Sequence record: PP213477.1 | Origin: Escherichia phage vB_Eco_ZCEC08 | DNA length: 47,926 nucleotides | Reading direction: 5' to 3' (one strand) | Part shown: positions 5,361-27,740 of the stretch, in pieces | Layout: every line of letters starts with the position of its first letter | How positions within the stretch are numbered: the first letter of the stretch is position 1 | The notes under the pieces: generated by a model | What the model saw: only the letters and a program-made list of their open reading frames with translations | The model's database searches: none | Told to the model about the DNA's origin: nothing | Program-made: the position numbers and the translations under genes

Positions 5361-6011
5361 TCATTCCTCCAGTTTTACGCCGGGAATCTTGCCTGCCGCG
5401 ATGGCTTCATAAATTAGCTTGGCCTCATCCTCGCGCTTGTAATCTTGAGCTACCATTTCTAACACCGCGCAGATAGACTCAAGTACAGCCTCATGCTTCT
5501 TTTCTGCTTCTGTGCGTAATGGCTTTAGGCTTTCAGGAACGAAGCAGCATGATCGAACAGCACCACCCTCATCCCAGTAGCAAACAGCCACATCGTTTCC
5601 GTCCGTTGTTGTTTTGTGTGCCACAACTTCCATTTCAGTGCCGGCATCAGGAATCCAGGCATTGCGGTATCCTAACTTTGGATTGATGAAGAATTCTACT
5701 TTTGCACCAACTGGAGGTAGGCCTTCGCCGCTCCATGTTGGCTTTTGTGATGCTGCGAGTGCGGATTCGTATTGGCTTCTAGTTACCATTGCCTTCGTAC
5801 TGTCGCATGATAAAACAACATCATTATCAACTCGCCAGTATCCAACTAAACCCTTTCCTGTTCTGTGTCTCCAGCCAAATCCATTGTATCTTGGGTCATC
5901 ATAACGCCAGCAACAGAAATAGCCGTCGGCATCTTGCGTAACCACCACCCAGTTTTCGTTCCACCCACCACGCTTAGGTAATTCTTGAACTAACAGTTCG
6001 ATAAGTTTCAT
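5361..6011 (-). CDS. hypothetical protein (216 aa)
   Basis: ORF track; last gene of a minus-strand cassette. Confidence 0.55.
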   Translation of the reverse strand: MKLIELLVQELPKRGGWNENWVVVTQDADGYFCCWRYDDPRYNGFGWRHRTGKGLVGYWRVDNDVVLSCDSTKAMVTRSQYESALAASQKPTWSGEGLPPVGAKVEFFINPKLGYRNAWIPDAGTEMEVVAHKTTTDGNDVAVCYWDEGGAVRSCCFVPESLKPLRTEAEKKHEAVLESICAVLEMVAQDYKREDEAKLIYEAIAAGKIPGVKLEE

Positions 6012-6012
6012 T

Positions 6013-6264
6013 TCATTCTCCTAGCGCTTTGTTGATTGCACCCTGTGCTGATTTAATCACTTCTGGGTATGCGTCATTCCAGTTTTGCTTATACGCTTTA
6101 CTGAGCATTTTCTGCAAAGCCTCCAGAAGCTCAGGTGCTGCAGCGATGACGTTGGCATCATCCTTATTGGTAACATCGCACACGAATTGGTCGCCATTAC
6201 TATAGACCCCACCAAGTTCATCATCGTAATGCCACGACCCAGGGATTCCTTTAAATTCTTCCAT
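6013..6264 (-). CDS. Ead/Ea22-like family protein
   Basis: motif IAAAPELLEAL...INKALGE shared with ORF 37490..37771; ATG at residue 5 of the track ORF. Confidence 0.5.
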   Translation of the reverse strand: MEEFKGIPGSWHYDDELGGVYSNGDQFVCDVTNKDDANVIAAAPELLEALQKMLSKAYKQNWNDAYPEVIKSAQGAINKALGE

Positions 6265-6272
6265 CACCAACC

Positions 6273-6416
6273 TCACTTAATATATTCAACAATCTCAACT
6301 TCGCGCATCTGCACCAGACTAAATGGCGCAACCACCTTGCCGTACGGACGGATTTTGATTTGCTCAAGGCTGAACATTCTGCGACAACCGCTTTCTTTGA
6401 ATTTGACTATTGCCAT
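6273..6416 (-). CDS. small hypothetical protein (47 aa)
   Basis: hand-translated MAIVKFKESGCRRMFSLEQIK...; not in ORF track; first gene of the minus cassette. Confidence 0.3.
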   Translation of the reverse strand: MAIVKFKESGCRRMFSLEQIKIRPYGKVVAPFSLVQMREVEIVEYIK

Positions 6417-6440
6417 GATTTCTCCCTCACTCATCATTTA

Positions 6441-6477
6441 ATGTAGATACTATGCACCACCACTCAATCTACGTCAA
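6441..6477 (-). promoter_or_regulatory. candidate minus-strand promoter (TTGACG ... TAGTAT) with inverted ATCTAC motifs
   Basis: reverse complement reads TTGACGTAGATTGAGTGGTGGTGCATAGTATCTACAT. Confidence 0.35.
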
Positions 6478-6521
6478 TAGTCATTGTGATAGAATTAATC
6501 ATTATTTGAACTGGAGGCAGA

Positions 6522-6800
6522 ATGAAACTATCGCAACGAGGCGTGGAGACGTTTGGAATTACCGATGCCGTGGATATATCGCCTTACATCACTACCGAGA
6601 CAACGCAGAATCAGTTCGACGCGCTGGCAAGTCTTGCCACCGACATTGGCATTTACGCGTTCCGTAAATCAACGCTTCTGAAGAAGCACAACCTCCGCTG
6701 CTTCTCATGTGCTGTTGCGCATTTCATCGCGTGGGGCGAGAAGACTGGCGACAAAGCAAAACGCAAAGCTGAAAAAGAGGTTTACTGGTATGGCTATTAG
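6522..6800 (+). CDS. hypothetical protein (92 aa) upstream of endolysin
   Basis: ORF track; GGAGG upstream; not hydrophobic enough to call a holin. Confidence 0.45.
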   Translation: MKLSQRGVETFGITDAVDISPYITTETTQNQFDALASLATDIGIYAFRKSTLLKKHNLRCFSCAVAHFIAWGEKTGDKAKRKAEKEVYWYGY

Positions 6801-8525: not shown

Positions 8526-8790
8526 TATGATCCTCCACAATCCGCACCAGTGAGCACTCAAGATTCGGTGCATTGTAATTACCAGCCAGAAACAGCACGC
8601 TACCAGTGCTAATAAGCACCTGCTTCGCGTTCGCCTGCGACAGATTCTGCACGATGAATTGCGCTGTTTCTGTGCCGATTTTCAGCACTGCGCTGCCGTC
8701 GCTGTTCAGTGATACAAGTTGTGCGGAAGTGTCAGTAATGTTGGTGAAGTTCGCGTTTCGCTGCGCGATTGTGATGTCGCAAAAAGACAT
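8515..8790 (-). CDS. hypothetical protein (91 aa)
   Basis: ORF track. Confidence 0.5.
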   Translation of the reverse strand: MSFCDITIAQRNANFTNITDTSAQLVSLNSDGSAVLKIGTETAQFIVQNLSQANAKQVLISTGSVLFLAGNYNAPNLECSLVRIVEDHNGE

Positions 8791-9092
8791 TATTTAATCT
8801 CTCCGTTCAGTTCATTAACAATTAACGTTGCATAGCCAGCAATATCTTTCCAGCTGTCATCATAAGTCGGGTCGCCATTCAGAATGCGCCCAATCTTGTG
8901 CTGAATCATGTCGAGCGCCTCGCGTTGACTTGGTGTGAGATTGCGCCAGCCATCTACCTCGCGCATCACATCTTTCAACTCCTGCATAATTTCAGCGCCG
9001 TCTTTGAATTTACCGTATCGACTACCGCGTTCGGTGATGAGTCGCTCTGTTGCGTCAGTATGGCGCTTATCGCCCGTGATTTGTGAACTCAT
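8790..9092 (-). CDS. hypothetical protein (100 aa)
   Basis: ORF track. Confidence 0.5.
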   Translation of the reverse strand: MSSQITGDKRHTDATERLITERGSRYGKFKDGAEIMQELKDVMREVDGWRNLTPSQREALDMIQHKIGRILNGDPTYDDSWKDIAGYATLIVNELNGEIK

Positions 9093-10139: not shown

Positions 10140-10334
10140 ATGGCGCATGACGAACTGTACGAAGAATCGTTAATCCAGAGGTTGAATGAAGTTGAGCGCA
10201 CTCGCGAATGGCTGGAGTGCGAGTTACGAGAAGTGCGCAACCGCCTGCAACGCAAGCGCAGTCAGCAAAGAGATGTCATCGACTGGTCTGGGGGTACACC
10301 TAAATTTAACAATCTGGGAGAATGGTTGAAATGA
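10140..10334 (+). CDS. hypothetical protein (64 aa)
   Basis: ORF track. Confidence 0.4.
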   Translation: MAHDELYEESLIQRLNEVERTREWLECELREVRNRLQRKRSQQRDVIDWSGGTPKFNNLGEWLK

Positions 10335-10861
10335 GCAACATTAGTCAGGAAAGCATTTTAAAGTTCCTCCAGTATGATGAAAATACAGGAAACTTTCTAT
10401 GGATTGATAATTTCTCAAGAAAATCAAAGAAAGGGAAGGTGGCTGGAGGTATTACATCGCATGGGTATTGGAGAATTCAACTCCCCATCGGGAGGTTTTA
10501 CGCACACAGAATGGCGTGGATTGTTTGCAATGGAGATATACCAAACGGATATGAGATTGATCACATAAATGGGAACAAGAAAGATAATCGCATCAGCAAC
10601 CTAAGATTGGTCACAAGAGGTCAAAATGTTATGAATGTAGGCGTGAAAAACAATAATACAAGCGGAGTTAAGGATGTTGTTTGGGACTCTTCGCGAGAAA
10701 GGTGGGGGGTTCAAATTACAGCCAATGGCAAGCATTATTATGGAGGTAGATTCTCGTCAATAACACAAGCAAAAGAGGAGAGGAACAGGCTCATAAAGAT
10801 GGTTCACGGGAAATTTTTGAATACAAAAGGTGAGCAATATGACACTACTAATGAACGATGA
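10322..10861 (+). CDS. HNH homing endonuclease (AP2-domain type), paralogue 2
   Basis: HRMAW..., IDHINGNKKDNRISNLRLVT, GVKDVVWDSSRERWGVQI. Confidence 0.7.
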   Translation: MVEMSNISQESILKFLQYDENTGNFLWIDNFSRKSKKGKVAGGITSHGYWRIQLPIGRFYAHRMAWIVCNGDIPNGYEIDHINGNKKDNRISNLRLVTRGQNVMNVGVKNNNTSGVKDVVWDSSRERWGVQITANGKHYYGGRFSSITQAKEERNRLIKMVHGKFLNTKGEQYDTTNER

Positions 10862-22215: not shown

Positions 22216-22589
22216 TGAATATGCTTGAACTGGTTGATGCATATCTTCAGGATGCAGGATTGTACGATGGCTGGACTTCGCAGCTGCAGTTCTGGAATGA
22301 CACCGGAGATGGAAGTGAGCAATTTATTGTTCTGCAATCCAACGGTGGCACTCAGGTTATGGATGGCCTCGGCGGTGACTTCTATTTTTCGCTGTATGTT
22401 GTTGGCAAACAAGGCCAATACAATGTTGCTGATGTTGATTCGAAGGCCAATGAGATTATCGAATACATCAAAACACACCCGATTGATTCATGCGTTAACT
22501 ACATCCAGTTGCAAGCGCCACTTGGCAGGGCAATGCTGACGGAAGAAAAAAGACCAGTGCATGAACTGCTATTGCGTGTTGTGAAATAA
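22215..22589 (+). CDS. putative tail terminator protein
   Basis: 124 aa; last gene before the terminator and tail genes; call by position. Confidence 0.4.
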   Translation: MNMLELVDAYLQDAGLYDGWTSQLQFWNDTGDGSEQFIVLQSNGGTQVMDGLGGDFYFSLYVVGKQGQYNVADVDSKANEIIEYIKTHPIDSCVNYIQLQAPLGRAMLTEEKRPVHELLLRVVK

Positions 22590-22590
22590 A

Positions 22591-22616
22591 TAAAGCCGCA
22601 TGAAGCGGCTTTTAAT
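22591..22616. terminator. bidirectional rho-independent terminator
   Basis: AGCCGC-ATGA-AGCGGCT then TTTAATTT; abuts the 3' end of the minus-strand tRNA-like gene. Confidence 0.5.
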
Positions 22617-22617
22617 T

Positions 22618-22694
22618 TGGTGGACACGGACGGATTTGAACCTTCAATCAGCCGATTATTAGTCGGTTGCTTTAACCAATTAAGCTACGCGTCC
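22618..22694 (-). tRNA. tRNA-like gene, isotype undetermined (hand fold gives anticodon AAU)
   Basis: minus strand reads GGACGCG-TA-GCTT-AATTGGTTA-AAGC-A-ACCGA-CTAATAA-TCGGC-TGATT-GAAGG-TTCAAAT-CCGTC-CGTGTCC-ACCA: 7-bp acceptor stem (one G.U), 4-bp D stem, T-loop TTCAAAT, encoded CCA; one mismatch each in anticodon and T stems. Confidence 0.5.
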
Positions 22695-23192
22695 ATAAGT
22701 GCTGGTTTAAGCATTGCCAGCGTGCTTTCTTAACATCCAGCCCCGTAACCCATACATACCCCTACATATGATTGCGATAATGCTGGATATTAAGTGTTGT
22801 GGTGGCCGGTGCTGATCTCCGGCATAAGGCGCTTATTCGGCGGCGTCGAGCTTGCTTATTCGCTTGAGCCATCCTCGTGAGTCAGCCACGTCCCACTGCG
22901 CATCAGCCTGCGCATTCACCACAACGGAAAGAGCACTGATGCGCTCACTTGGGACTCCTTAGCCATAACCCACGGGCTTCTGGTACACCAATGCTCTTAC
23001 CTGTTGTGTTCCCTGACTTATTAATCACACCTCAGGGACGCAGTGCGCCGAATTTGTTTACAAGGAATCGGAAGACCTTGCTGACTTACAGGCTATTACG
23101 CCGCCATCAGAACAACATCATCGTTTGCATTTATCTTTGTGGTCAGTTTCTAAAAAGTCCGCAAAGTCGCTCACGAAAACTATCTGAAATAC

Positions 23193-23236
23193 AATCTACA
23201 CCACAAAATAATCGCTGTCAACACCTGTGATATAAT
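23193..23236. promoter_or_regulatory. back-to-back promoters: minus TTGACA-17-TAGATT and plus extended -10 TGATATAAT
   Basis: hexamers read directly; plus promoter precedes the major tail gene; minus promoter points into the non-coding region and tRNA. Confidence 0.45.
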
Positions 23237-23272: not shown

Positions 23273-23992
23273 ATGGCTATTTGTGCAAATGATAAAGGCG
23301 TTCTGGTCGGTCGCATGACCCGACTGTTCCTTGCTGAAGGGTGCGGCGACGCAGTTCCGGATGCAGGCGACTGGAAGTATTTAGGCTCAACCACCAGTAA
23401 AGGCGTTGACTACTCGCCGCAGACCACTACGTCGGAAGCGGATACCGCTGGCGGCTTTGTTTCTACTCTCGTTACCAGCTCTGATATGACCATCAGTGCA
23501 GAGGTAGAAATCCGCAAGAATGACCCGAGCGATGAGTTTGGCTTCCATCGTCTTGTTGAGATTTACACCACTGAACTGAAGGTTCGCCGCCAGCCTTCCT
23601 TGTGGGTGCGTCAGGTGACTGGTGCAACTATCGTTACCGCGTATTGCAACATCACCAGCATCAGCTACGAAGGTGGCACGAACGATATCGTTACTGGTAG
23701 CCTTGAGTTTAAGGTTTACGATTCTGACAGCGTTACCGTAGAAAGCCTTGAACCTCTGGCATTCACTACCGACCTGCAATCAACTGGCACGGCCGGAAGC
23801 CCGTTAACCGTTGCTGTTGAAGGTGGCGTTACTCCTTACACTTATGTATGGCGCAAAGATGGCGCAGTTGTTGGTGGTGAGTCTGGCGCATCTCTGGCAA
23901 GCCCTACCGCTGGCGTGTATACCGTCACGGTAACTGATTCATCTACCGACCCGGAAATTATCATCAGTACGGCGTGCACGGTATCCTCATAA
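23273..23992 (+). CDS. major tail protein with C-terminal Ig-like domain
   Basis: 239 aa; position before the tail chaperone and tape measure; C-terminal Thr/Val-rich Ig-like repeat. Confidence 0.6.
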   Translation: MAICANDKGVLVGRMTRLFLAEGCGDAVPDAGDWKYLGSTTSKGVDYSPQTTTSEADTAGGFVSTLVTSSDMTISAEVEIRKNDPSDEFGFHRLVEIYTTELKVRRQPSLWVRQVTGATIVTAYCNITSISYEGGTNDIVTGSLEFKVYDSDSVTVESLEPLAFTTDLQSTGTAGSPLTVAVEGGVTPYTYVWRKDGAVVGGESGASLASPTAGVYTVTVTDSSTDPEIIISTACTVSS

Positions 23993-24025
23993 AGAAAAGC
24001 CCCGAAAGGGGCTTTGTTTTATTCT
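23992..24025. terminator. bidirectional rho-independent terminator
   Basis: AAAGCCCC-GAAA-GGGGCTTTGTTTT between convergent genes. Confidence 0.55.
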
Positions 24026-24219
24026 TGTGGTGGTTCTGGCGGATTGGCCCAGTGGGTAGCTGGAATTCCGTGACAGCAGTCCAATTCACTAACAAATATC
24101 TTGCTGCCAATATTATCGACAGCTTTACATACCGCAGTTCTAACAACACCGCGAAATGCTGTAAGAACCATCGTTCCTTCTTCTGGCATTCGCTCACTAC
24201 ACTTAATCCACTGGCTCAT
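24019..24219 (-). CDS. DUF551-like small protein
   Basis: MSQWIKCSERMPEEGTMVL... fits the W-I-x-x-x-E-R-M-P-E-x-G pattern of DUF551 phage proteins. Confidence 0.5.
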   Translation of the reverse strand: MSQWIKCSERMPEEGTMVLTAFRGVVRTAVCKAVDNIGSKIFVSELDCCHGIPATHWANPPEPPQE

Positions 24220-24359
24220 ATCACCTTGTCCTCATCAAAAATCACGCCAATAACGCGAAGTAAGTCTTTCGCCATGCGTTCCGCTTCTTCATAATCGTAA
24301 CCTGCATCAACATACAGTTCAGTGTAGAAAATCAGGTCAGCTTTTGTTTGTTCGTTCAT
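24216..24359 (-). CDS. small hypothetical protein (47 aa)
   Basis: hand-translated MNEQTKADLIFYTELYVDAGYDYEEAERMAKDLL...; ATGA overlaps at both ends. Confidence 0.3.
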   Translation of the reverse strand: MNEQTKADLIFYTELYVDAGYDYEEAERMAKDLLRVIGVIFDEDKVI

Positions 24360-24550
24360 TTCTTGTCGCCACTGTTAACTAATGCCCAAACAAGTGCCGC
24401 AACCCATCCAATGAAGCTCCATCCGACAAGAATATTCAATACACAGATTGCTGTCGTGTTTGTGTGCTTTCTTTGCAATGCCACAAATGACGGGAGAAGA
24501 TAAGCAAATATAACCAATCCAGCAAAAAGCAACAAAATAACAACATCCAT
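24356..24550 (-). CDS. small two-pass membrane protein (64 aa)
   Basis: two hydrophobic segments separated by QRKHTNT; GAGGTG upstream; first gene of the moron operon. Confidence 0.5.
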   Translation of the reverse strand: MDVVILLLFAGLVIFAYLLPSFVALQRKHTNTTAICVLNILVGWSFIGWVAALVWALVNSGDKK

Positions 24551-24585
24551 AACTCACCTCATTCATATCTCGTTTCGATGATTTG

Positions 24586-24633
24586 AATCTACATCACCAC
24601 CCCGCAGGTGTCAACACCACTGAGATGATATAA
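24586..24633. promoter_or_regulatory. back-to-back promoters: minus TTGACA-17-TAGATT and plus extended -10 TGATATAAT
   Basis: same architecture as 23193..23236; drives the minus moron operon and the plus tail chaperone gene. Confidence 0.5.
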
Positions 24634-24654
24634 TCAACATCAGTCAAATTCAGG

Positions 24655-25371
24655 ATGCAAAATATGAGCAATCGCACGCCACTAACAGAAATCGGGGAGA
24701 TGCGCATCTCGCTTTCTGACAGGAGTTTTTTCTTTAAGCCATCATTCCGCGCAATGAATGAAATCGGCACGCCAAAAGAAATCGTCGAGGTATACGCTAA
24801 GCTCAATGGCATTGATTATGTTGCGCCGCTGCAGCACGTCGAATACCTGCCGTTTGGCGCGCAGATGCAGGTTATGAAAACCATCAGCAAGCCAGTGTAT
24901 GGTCGACATGTACTGGGTGCGGCCTATATTGTCATGCAATCATGCTGTGAAGATGATGTTTCCGTGTTGATTGGTGGCTGGAAACCAACTCCACGCGGCG
25001 TGCGATATGTTCCAGGCATCATGCCAGTGAGCGACATTATTATTATTGCGCGCAACCTGATGCAGCACGGCATCATCGGTAAGTCACCACTCAAAGTGCC
25101 TGAGCGCCTGGAGGAGCAAGGCAAGAAAACCACAAACGAGTTTCATGCGTCGCAATACATCATCTCAGCACGCACGCATTTCGACATGACTCGCGATGAG
25201 GCCGAAAACCTGTCCATGACAGAGTTTCAGATGATGATTAAGAATAAATATCCAGAGCCGAAAGGGTTAACTAAAGAAGAACGTGCGGCTGAGTACGATC
25301 AGGCTAAAGCTGACCGCGAGCGCATGAAGGCGCTGGCTGAACGCAAAGCGAAAAAAGCGAGGAATACATAA
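24655..25371 (+). CDS. putative tail assembly chaperone (start may be 24664)
   Basis: 238 aa immediately upstream of tape measure with TAATG overlap; Lys/Glu-rich C-terminus; call by position. Confidence 0.4.
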   Translation: MQNMSNRTPLTEIGEMRISLSDRSFFFKPSFRAMNEIGTPKEIVEVYAKLNGIDYVAPLQHVEYLPFGAQMQVMKTISKPVYGRHVLGAAYIVMQSCCEDDVSVLIGGWKPTPRGVRYVPGIMPVSDIIIIARNLMQHGIIGKSPLKVPERLEEQGKKTTNEFHASQYIISARTHFDMTRDEAENLSMTEFQMMIKNKYPEPKGLTKEERAAEYDQAKADRERMKALAERKAKKARNT

Positions 25372-27739
25372 TGGCTGAAGAAGTCGGCGGAATTGTCTAT
25401 GAAGTCGGGATGGATGTTAAAGGTCTGAAAGCTGGCGCGACAACAGCCAATAAGACTTTAGATGACCTTGAGTCATCACTAAACAAGACTACCGGAGAAC
25501 TCAACAAGCTGGACAAAGGCGCGCGCAATGCTGGCAGCGGAATAAAGAATGCTGGCGGCGCAGCTTCAGGACTCAAGACCAGTATGTCGATGCTAGCTGG
25601 CGCAATATCCGTGTCACTGATTATCGAATGGGGCAAGCGATTCCTTGAGGTTGCCGATAACATGACGCAGCTTCAGGCAAGGATTGCTCGCCTGTCAACT
25701 GATGCGAAAACCGCGAACGAAACATTCAGCGCACTGGCAAATATCGCCTCAACCACTGGCGCAAGCCTCAGCGACACGACGAAACTGTGGGAAACATTGA
25801 CGTCATCACTGAAAGAGGCTGGCGCGACAAATGCGCAGGTTCTTAACCTTACAGATACCCTGCAAAAAATAGGTCGAATCGGCGGGTCATCAACTGAAGA
25901 AATGGCTAACGCCCTGCGTCAGTTCGGTCAGTCAATCGCTTCTGGCACAATCCGTGCAGAAGAATTTAACTCTATCCTTGAGCAGATGCCTGAACTTGCG
26001 CGCCAGATAGCGGCTGGGCTTGGCATTTCAATGGGTGAACTTCGCGCCAGAATGCTCGATGGCAAGCTGACAGCAGAAGATGCACTGAATGCCATTCAGG
26101 ACAGAACAAGCGTCGTCAATGCTGAGTTCGCAAAACTACCGCGCTCTATATCTCAGGCTACTGGAAGTCTTGAAACATCATTTGCAAAAATGATAGCAAG
26201 CATAAACGATGCAACCGGAGCCAGCTCCACTTTTGTTTCTGTTATTGATTCTATCACTTCAGCAATAAACAGACTTACTGGTCAAACTGTAAGTGCAGCA
26301 GAGGTTATTTCTGATTTGACGTCAACAGCCGAAATGTTCAGTCGCAGGGCTAGAACTTGGTCATGGGTTGGCATTGACGGATGGGCGGCACAAAATCAGG
26401 CAATAGCTGCGGTAGCAAATCAGGCTGCAACTTTGGTATCAGATATGGATGCCGTAACTAAGTCAACAGGAGAGGCAGCAAAAGCTCAGGCGCATTTGAC
26501 AGTGCCTAAAGCGGCAGAGAAAGACAAAAAAGGAAAAGGTAAAAGCGCAGAAGAGCGACAAGCTGAGTCAGTAGCTGAAAAGCTGGAGAAATTACGCCAG
26601 CAAACCATGCTCAATGCAGCATCTACCAGCGAACTATCCCGCGAGCAAGCCATCCTCAATGCGCAGCAATCGCTTGGCAAGGCAGCAACTCAGGAGCAGA
26701 TAAAACTGGCGGGGGAGTACGCTGCGAAGATTTGGGACCAGAAAAACGCACTGAAGGAGCAGGCAGAAGCTGAGAAGGAAAAGCAGCGCGTAGAAAAATC
26801 ATATCAAGGGTTGCGCGCCATTGCGTCGCCAACAACTGGCATTGATAGTGAATACCAGCAACGAATGGCTGACCTTGACGCCTACGCCGCAGCGTATCCG
26901 CAGAAAATCACGGAAATTGAACAGACTCGCGCAGCAATTGAAGCGCAATACCGCCAACAGCGAATGGACGCTATGTGGGCTGAATGGCAGCAACAAAGCC
27001 TCGGCGCGCAACTGTTCGGTACCGCTCTTGATTCAGCAATGAGTACGGCATCAAACAGCATCACCGGATTGCTGACAGGAACAATGAGCGTTCAGGATGC
27101 CATGCGCAGTCTCGGCTCTACGGTACTCAACTCTCTGGTAAATAGTTTCGTCGAGATGGGTGTGCGGTGGGTTAAATCTGCTGTTATGGGTCAGACTGCA
27201 CAGGTTGCAGCCACAGCGACAACCACAGCGGCGCAAACGGCAGGACTGGCAACCACAACAGCAGCATCCACTGCGGCGGCAGCAACCACTACGGCAGCAT
27301 GGACTCCTGCAGCAATCGTAGCATCAATCGGCTCATTCGGCGGGGCGGCTGCAATTGGGGTAGGTGCCGTTCTCGGAGCGCTGGCGATGGGCATTGCTGG
27401 CAAGCGTAAAAATGGTGGCCCTGTTAGTGCCGGAAGTATGTACGAAGTGGGCGAAAATGGCTTGCCTGAAATATTCCAGGCGTCCAACGGTCGCCAGTAT
27501 ATGATTCCCGGTAACGACGGCTCAGTTATCAGCAACAAAGACCTGACAGGCGGCAGCAGTGGTGTTGTAGTTTATAATAGCATTATCAATAACAGCTCAG
27601 CGCAGGTTAGCAGTAGCGCCAGAGATAACGGTGACGGCAGCGTGACAATTGAGACGATTGTGAGTGATATTTCGGAAAATGGCCCAATAGGGCAAGCCAT
27701 TTCAAGAAACTACAATACCAACAGGAGAGCAACCGAATA

Positions 27740-27740
<1 letters not shown>
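25371..27740 (+). CDS. tail tape measure protein
   Basis: 789 aa; long predicted helical regions; Ala/Thr-rich hydrophobic segment near C-terminus; position. Confidence 0.8.

Follow-up and report, generated by a model that had tools for sequence, protein, structure and literature searches.

A three-gene cassette on the minus strand, lying among the tail genes of Escherichia phage vB_Eco_ZCEC08 (PP213477.1), was analyzed in the 47,926-nt stretch of DNA referred to here as the window. We consider it probable, at roughly 0.7, that the cassette is an accessory transcription unit driven by the host RNA polymerase, and that its first product is an exclusion protein of the T4 Imm family that would act by analogy with its T4 counterpart. 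The listing of open reading frames (ORFs) contained exactly three minus-strand ORFs in the cassette, at 24550..24356, 24359..24216, and 24219..24019, encoding a 64-amino-acid (aa) Imm-like protein with two predicted transmembrane segments, a 47-aa acidic protein, and a 66-aa DUF551 protein, respectively. Both junctions between these ORFs are 4-nt ATGA stop/start overlaps, in agreement with a first-pass annotation of this DNA, which had described a three-gene minus-strand operon with overlapping stop and start codons. The cassette occupies a slot with the major tail gene on one side and the DUF6246 and tape measure genes on the other, on the strand opposite to them. Profile searches of the three proteins returned PF14373 for the 64-aa protein, PF04448 for the 66-aa protein, and phrog_17424 alone for the 47-aa protein, and a search of NCBIfam with the cassette proteins gave none above threshold.

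The Imm-like protein

Judged by its sequence, the 64-aa protein is a clear member of the PF14373 family and is T4-Imm-like. It scored 66 bits against the Pfam model PF14373 (Imm_superinfect), for which the gathering score is 27.9, and covered model positions 2–42 of 42; T4 Imm itself scored 58 bits on this model. The PHROGs family phrog_1039, "immunity to superinfection," was matched with an E-value of 5.5e-24. BLASTP comparison with T4 Imm (from NC_000866) revealed 34% identity over 62 residues with an E-value of 4e-12, and R27 and W44 of the 64-aa protein were aligned with R33 and W50 of T4 Imm in the local alignment. W44 and P20 were invariant across distant Imm homologues. A hydropathy calculation (Kyte-Doolittle) placed two hydrophobic segments at residues ~3–25 and ~34–58, with the basic loop QRKHTNTT between them. 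The earlier proposal of a two-pass membrane protein is consistent with these segments, and its designation as a superinfection exclusion candidate was borne out by the homology to PF14373 and T4 Imm. The gene, referred to here as imm, is already annotated as immunity to superinfection in RefSeq/GenBank relatives and in a published gene table (PMC12965234), and the novelty of the assignment is therefore low. What remains of interest is the linkage of imm to the tape measure gene, together with the hypervariability of the DUF551 gene and the conservation of the 47-aa orphan.

Translocation of the genome is blocked by T4 Imm, which, according to a 2026 preprint, is co-purified with the tape measure protein gp29, makes contact with the helical-bundle domain of gp29, and loses part of its exclusion activity upon the substitution W50A or R33A (10.64898/2026.03.06.709160). 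Both of these tested residues are kept in the 64-aa protein. By analogy, the Imm-like protein would be made in the infected cell and most likely be inserted in the cytoplasmic membrane, where it would stop DNA entry of later-arriving phages of the same or a related kind. It may do so by attaching to the tape measure protein as it arrives, so that no channel is opened through the inner membrane. The 47-aa and DUF551 products would be translationally coupled small cytoplasmic proteins.

The two Imm proteins share the family, the small size, the two hydrophobic segments, and the equivalents of R33 and W50, and both phages are virulent. T4 Imm is, however, 83 aa long, and its N-terminal extension and C-terminal tail are missing from the 64-aa protein. 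T4 is a myovirus that carries imm among its early replication genes beside gene 43, whereas in the siphophage studied here the gene lies on the opposite strand beside the tape measure gene, with its own promoter and terminator.

Several observations weigh against exclusion by the T4 mechanism. The function would be transferred from T4 at 34% identity over ~60 mostly hydrophobic residues, and the tape measure protein of T4, a myovirus, is unrelated in sequence to that of the present phage. Imm is nearly invariant in the relatives, whose tape measure proteins have lengths between 778 and 1097 aa, and any interaction would thus need a conserved part of the tape measure protein. Moreover, imm is missing from two close relatives, and the promoter and terminator of the unit are consensus matches. 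The 47-aa gene is the most conserved gene of the cassette, and the primary purpose of the unit may therefore be other than exclusion.

Since very small membrane proteins with two hydrophobic segments include holins, we considered whether the 64-aa protein serves the phage's own cycle instead of exclusion, either as a holin or antiholin in lysis timing or by envelope modulation. We regard this as very unlikely. The 64-aa protein did give a weak, sub-threshold match to DUF3302 (22 bits; Pfam cut-off, 32), in keeping with the tendency of such sequences to match several small-membrane-protein models, but its match to PF14373, a model also matched by T4 Imm, is strong and full-length, and no holin family was matched in Pfam or PHROGs. 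In the relative KFSST1, the cluster of holin, endolysin, and spanin genes is located ~15 kb away, and the absence of imm from some relatives would be less easily tolerated for a lysis-control gene. A holin or lysis role was rejected on the basis of the family match and the location of the lysis genes in KFSST1.

Similarity to HK97 gp15 or YebO was not found in a Pfam scan of the 64-aa protein with E-values up to 1, which gave PF14373 and DUF3302 only. A weak match of Imm to the 2TM-TIR model in PADLOC (15.7 bits) was put down to hydrophobic composition.

Conservation and transcription signals of the cassette

The phage belongs to a Skatevirus-like group; at the nucleotide level it is 88–95% identical to Escherichia phages HC6 and 6947, Salmonella phage Skate, and others. 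For 30 related loci (individual loci are given L numbers), we compared the region that separates the major tail gene from the DUF6246 gene. Its length ranged from 651 to 1373 nt although the flanking proteins were 91–99% identical. Pairwise substitutions were computed by the Nei-Gojobori method for the two ORFs of fixed length. The pS, pN, and dN/dS values were 0.42, 0.044, and 0.07 for imm and 0.31, 0.014, and 0.04 for the 47-aa gene, respectively, and the ratios in two shifted control frames were 1.7–2.7. Because the substitutions are strongly synonymous in the annotated frames only, imm and the 47-aa gene code for proteins, are expressed, and evolve under purifying selection.

The TTGACA-17-TAGATT promoter proposed in the first-pass annotation was found in a consensus scan as a sigma-70-type promoter on the minus strand (24586..24614), with the −35 hexamer TTGACA at 24614..24609, a 17-nt spacer, and the −10 hexamer TAGATT at 24591..24586. 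Both hexamers were invariant in the 30 relatives, and the spacer varied at several positions. The full promoter pattern with at most one mismatch occurred four times in the window, against 0.22 occurrences expected. The start of imm is preceded on the minus strand by the strong Shine-Dalgarno sequence GAGGTGA (24554..24560), 3 nt upstream of the ATG (GAGGTGA-GTT-ATG), and in relatives this sequence is kept before whichever gene stands first in the cassette. The DUF551 gene has AAGGTG 4 nt upstream of its start, and the 47-aa gene, which lacks a clear ribosome-binding site, is presumably translationally coupled. At the other end of the cassette, the intrinsic terminator claimed to be bidirectional was recovered as the hairpin AAAGCCCC-GAAA-GGGGCTTT (23996..24015), which has an 8-bp stem and T-runs on each strand and scored on both strands; its stem was invariant and its loop alone varied among the related loci. 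This consensus match is predicted to terminate transcription of the major tail gene as well as that of the cassette.

The ORFs of the cassette are short, and consensus scans yield false positives, as illustrated by 12 promoter-like sites against 5 expected in a 4-kb region. The ORFs, promoter, and terminator could on these grounds be chance features of an unexpressed intergenic spacer, but the probability of this is practically negligible. The substitutions follow the codon structure in the annotated frames only, two of the three products score above threshold against curated families, and the promoter hexamers and terminator stem are invariant while neighboring bases vary.

The −10 region of the cassette promoter, GTGATGTAGATT, is one copy of the motif TGAYGTAGAW, of which 12 exact copies were found in the window against 0.34 expected (positions 1472, 6467, 9817, 9843, 13708, 20141, 20172, 24587, 37797, 40424, 44578, and 44595). 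The copies are nearly all intergenic, often form direct or inverted pairs, and overlap the −35 or −10 of promoter-like sites, and the motif looks like a phage-wide promoter or operator element. The presence of this intergenic motif in its −10 region indicates that the cassette is integrated into the regulation of the phage itself. On the plus strand, in a back-to-back arrangement with the cassette promoter, the sequence TGATATAAT (24626..24634) was read as a candidate extended −10 promoter facing the DUF6246 and tape measure genes, and the 30 nt around it were invariant in relatives. Without such a promoter, transcription would stop at the bidirectional terminator following the major tail gene and fail to reach the tail genes beyond it.

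The cassette had been described earlier as a moron, and this term suits it in part. Its own promoter and terminator, its lower G+C content, and the presence or absence of individual genes among relatives are in line with the term. The G+C content was 0.41 for imm and the 47-aa gene and 0.41–0.43 in 300-nt windows over the cassette, compared with 0.49–0.55 in the flanking tail genes and a mean of 0.465 over the whole window. The promoter with its phage-wide motif does not agree with the term, and neither does the slot itself, which was occupied in each of 36 Skatevirus-like loci as well as in the sister group; the optional genes in it are imm, the 97-aa gene, the NinX gene, and the 93-aa gene described below. 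The relatives are reported to be strictly virulent and to carry neither an integrase nor a repressor (PMC12965234), so that expression from a prophage is not expected, and the contigs carrying the cassette are phage-sized. A prophage or lysogenic-conversion reading was rejected on these two grounds. "Accessory early-type unit," in which the timing of expression is one we infer, is a better description than lysogenic-conversion moron, and it is imm itself that behaves as an add-on.

The cassette resembles the archetypal moron, HK97 gp15, a small inner-membrane exclusion protein whose gene has its own promoter and terminator and lies in the tail operon beside the tape measure gene; for the Imm-like protein, the inner-membrane location is predicted. 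HK97 gp15 blocks genome entry in a manner dependent on the tail of the incoming phage, and its gene is located between the chaperone and tape measure genes (PMC3594210). It belongs, however, to an unrelated family, and HK97 is a temperate phage that expresses gp15 from the prophage, whereas the present cassette is found in a virulent phage, on the opposite strand, and comprises three genes. SieA of P22 and Cor of T1/phi80-like phages are also phage-encoded blockers of entry by superinfecting phages (PMC3594210; PMC10883804). Cor inactivates the outer-membrane receptor FhuA, and SieA is a larger inner-membrane protein expressed from the prophage; their families are unrelated to that of Imm, and neither was matched here.

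Gene content of the slot

The cassette in the window is the minimal form. Half of the relatives (L001, L005–L009, L012, and others) carry an additional gene between the promoter and imm, which encodes a 97-aa signal-peptide protein (phrog_2315, function unassigned). In size and layout, this protein recalls T4 Spackle, the periplasmic partner of Imm in exclusion. The cassette of BS5 contains a different added protein of 93 aa, and a NinX-family protein (PF10765, phrog_444) is encoded ahead of DUF551 in 13 of the 30 relatives. The imm gene is absent from the close relatives L037 and L039, in which the 97-aa gene abuts the 47-aa gene. In a sister group (L122–L125), whose DUF6246 protein is 67–70% identical, the slot is the same and the promoter similar, with no imm. 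There the slot opens with a 47-aa homologue that is 52–53% identical and closes with a DUF551-like protein in two of the three loci examined (L122 and L124).

The comparison of relatives thus shows a slot that is filled in every case and in which imm itself is optional, being dispensable in nature as judged from L037, L039, and L122–L125. The core of the cassette was conserved, with no structural role found for it and with a two-segment topology predicted for the Imm-like protein, and the findings are in this respect compatible with the proposal of an exclusion cassette. Phages of this group are used for the biocontrol of Salmonella and E. coli, and an exclusion gene can make the phages of a cocktail interfere with one another; relatives without imm exist for comparison.

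The 47-aa protein is acidic, as had been noted before, with an isoelectric point of 4.1 and 12 D+E against 5 K+R. Its sole match was phrog_17424, whose function is unassigned. An exhaustive HMMER search of 1.84 billion proteins yielded seven representative clusters of homologues, all from this phage group or the sister group. The AF2 model is a helical hairpin (helices at residues 3–18 and 23–36) with a pLDDT of 91, and a fold search of the model against the PDB gave no match with an E-value below 2 and generic helical hairpins only. The gene was present in every relative, the sister group included. Because the slot of the sister group starts with a 47-aa homologue and lacks imm, the 47-aa gene is an old resident, the oldest occupant of the slot, and imm is an add-on; the DUF551-like gene is probably another old resident.

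The 66-aa protein matched PF04448 (DUF551) with 44 bits (cut-off, 22) over model positions 1–68 of 68, which agrees with the earlier label of a DUF551-like protein. The DUF551 family has no known function (PMC10834534, PMC4776307). No solved DUF551 structure was found in a sequence search of the PDB, and the AF2 model, a small beta structure with a pLDDT of 71, had no significant structural neighbor. Both ends of the gene, comprising the first ~13 and last ~12 codons, were nearly invariant (MSQWIKCSERMPE... and ...THWMPLPEPPQE, respectively), and the center fell into 13 mutually unrelated types among 30 relatives (L001 and L003–L031) with flanking genes ~95% identical. Such a pattern points to repeated exchange of cassettes through recombination at the conserved ends, or to strong pressure for diversification, and it suggests that DUF551 is a swap-in module encoding a protein engaged in an arms race.

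These features of the two smaller genes bear on whether the unit is mainly an operon for host takeover or anti-defense, with the 47-aa and DUF551 proteins as its key products and Imm as a later passenger. We consider this unlikely. The occurrence of the 47-aa gene even in the sister group without imm, together with its having the lowest dN/dS, would fit such a role, as would the arms-race pattern of the DUF551 centers and the small genes for the NinX and 97-aa signal-peptide proteins that relatives add to the slot. However, no defense or anti-defense model in PADLOC was matched by the 47-aa or DUF551 protein, and neither corresponds to a solved structure or a characterized family. A takeover function would, in addition, be compatible with a working Imm exclusion, from which it differs in emphasis and not with regard to the imm gene.

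The tape measure and neighboring tail genes

Imm homologues were present in 1788 phage records of many kinds. The imm gene lies away from the tape measure gene in T4, Gordonia phage ShayRa, Acinetobacter phage P11B, and several metagenomic contigs, and in cluster-A mycobacteriophages the Imm match is found close to the genome's far end. Jerseyvirus wksl3 has its imm in the slot that the gene takes in the window, on the opposite strand between the major tail and chaperone genes. In Pseudomonas phage YMC11/02/R656 and the IMG/VR lineages L089, L102/L103, and L119, the major tail gene, chaperone-like ORFs, imm, and the tape measure gene follow one another in this order on one strand, and the tape measure gene starts 110–450 nt after imm. 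The Imm proteins of these siphophages (wksl3, YMC11/02/R656, L089, L103, and L119) belong to the same family as the 64-aa protein (41–49% identity), with imm less than 1 kb from the tape measure gene. The four same-strand lineages differ from the cassette in having imm without the 47-aa and DUF551 partners, and in YMC11/02/R656 Imm continues into a fused C-terminal extension, giving 195 aa in total.

Nine arrangements with a profile-confirmed tape measure gene within 10 kb of imm were counted, namely seven IMG/VR nucleotide clusters (two arrangements share one), Skatevirus, and Jerseyvirus. The distance was below 1 kb in six of the nine, which represent six unrelated siphophage lineages, and 2.2, 5.2, and 8.0 kb in the other three. 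If the distances were uniform over 0–10 kb, six of nine under 1 kb would have a probability of ~6e-5 (binomial calculated by hand), and a cruder whole-genome binomial gave 0.002–0.02. In these counts, the independence of lineages was judged by nucleotide clustering only, tape measure genes without a PHROG match were possibly missed, and genes are known to be inserted in the tail-gene region.

One tentative explanation, which we consider rather unlikely, is that siphophage imm genes are kept beside the tape measure gene as a cognate pair, with Imm as an antidote to the channel-forming tape measure of its own type. If so, Imm specificity and tape measure type would co-vary, and the position of imm would predict which phages are excluded. 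Colicin immunity genes have promoters of their own and stand beside the colicin gene in the opposite orientation, and imm is placed likewise relative to the tape measure gene. The proteins that confer immunity to pore-forming colicins are small proteins of the inner membrane that prevent an incoming pore-forming helical bundle from inserting into the membrane, and the parallel with Imm was drawn in the T4 preprint (10.64898/2026.03.06.709160). The parallel concerns function and position only, and Imm would be directed at a competitor's virion protein in place of a secreted toxin. The small, easily manipulated siphophage cassette would offer a convenient test of tape measure targeting as a general Imm mechanism and of the linkage as a sign of matched specificity.

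A separate observation was made in L103, where imm lies between two similar chaperone-like ORFs (8610..9002 and 10232..10606), whose products begin with MKPSDFYTRAKANEGERMPL... and M(PKGKS)MRPEDFYTRTRASQGVRVDL..., respectively. This arrangement gives the impression that a duplication of the chaperone gene went along with the insertion.

In the window, the major tail protein gene lies upstream of the DUF6246 gene on the plus strand (23273..23992). Relatives have this annotation for it, supplemented by a note that cites mass-spectrometry evidence from phage E1, and its product has 94–97% amino-acid identity across relatives. The gene on the other side of the cassette (24664..25371, plus strand) encodes a protein that matched PF19759 (DUF6246) with 245 bits and phrog_791 (function unassigned), and it is directly followed by the tape measure gene. 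The cassette had been placed between the major tail gene and a tail chaperone gene; the position was confirmed, but "chaperone" is a positional label, and the family is DUF6246. The start of this gene is probably the ATG at 24664, which has AGGA 8 nt upstream and corresponds to the 235-aa products of relatives, and not the first ATG at 24655.

The tape measure gene (25371..27740, plus strand) encodes a 789-aa protein that matched phrog_1538 with 676 bits and has one strongly hydrophobic segment at residues ~646–678. In close relatives, the tape measure proteins fall into length classes of ~778–792, 816–827, 969–981, and 1096–1097 aa, although the neighboring DUF6246 and major tail proteins are 91–99% identical. 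The tail length or the domain content of the tape measure protein is therefore polymorphic within the genus. A strict tie between the presence of imm and the length class was unsupported, because the pair of relatives without imm has proteins of 980–981 aa and L006 has the 980-aa type together with imm.

Beyond the major tail gene, a second minus-strand unit was observed at 22587..23221, so that this gene has a backward-facing accessory unit on either side. The second unit consists of a TTGACA-17-TAGATT promoter (23221..23193), ~500 nt without a convincing ORF, a tRNA gene (22694..22618), and a terminator (22612..22592). The promoter kept its position in 30 of 32 loci (the window and 31 relatives), and the unit was 454–1273 nt long. 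Its tRNA content varied and was Met(CAT), Ile(AAT), Ser+Arg, Met+Arg, or none. The tRNA of the window (22618..22694, minus strand) was called Ile(AAT) and differs from the tRNA(CAT) of relatives at anticodon position 34 only (C to A). The A34 form is unusual for an Ile tRNA in bacteria, and its recurrence in independent genomes (Skate, HC6, L038, and L054) indicates that it is not a sequencing error. The CAT form is either a Met tRNA or a lysidine-type Ile tRNA.

Two possible tmRNA signals in this region were rejected: the Rfam hits at 23047..23205 scored 27 and 18 bits, far below threshold, and a "tmRNA" called by ARAGORN in L066 was treated as a false positive built on the tRNA. Rfam contained no family for a 90-nt block at 22703..22792 (minus strand) just upstream of the tRNA gene. 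This block is the best-conserved part of the unit, with 94–98% majority identity in 32 of 32 loci, and its minus strand folds as a long imperfect hairpin of −32 kcal/mol (z = −3.6).

Free-standing endonuclease-type genes (HNH_3 and DUF723/T5orf172) were found on the opposite strand among the tail genes just past the tape measure gene in L039 (4849..5781), L042 (4801..5292 and 5937..6587), and L122 (1350..2237). L042 also has a Rha/Ant gene that separates the tail terminator gene from the major tail gene. Mobile genes frequently land in the tail module of the Skatevirus-like group.

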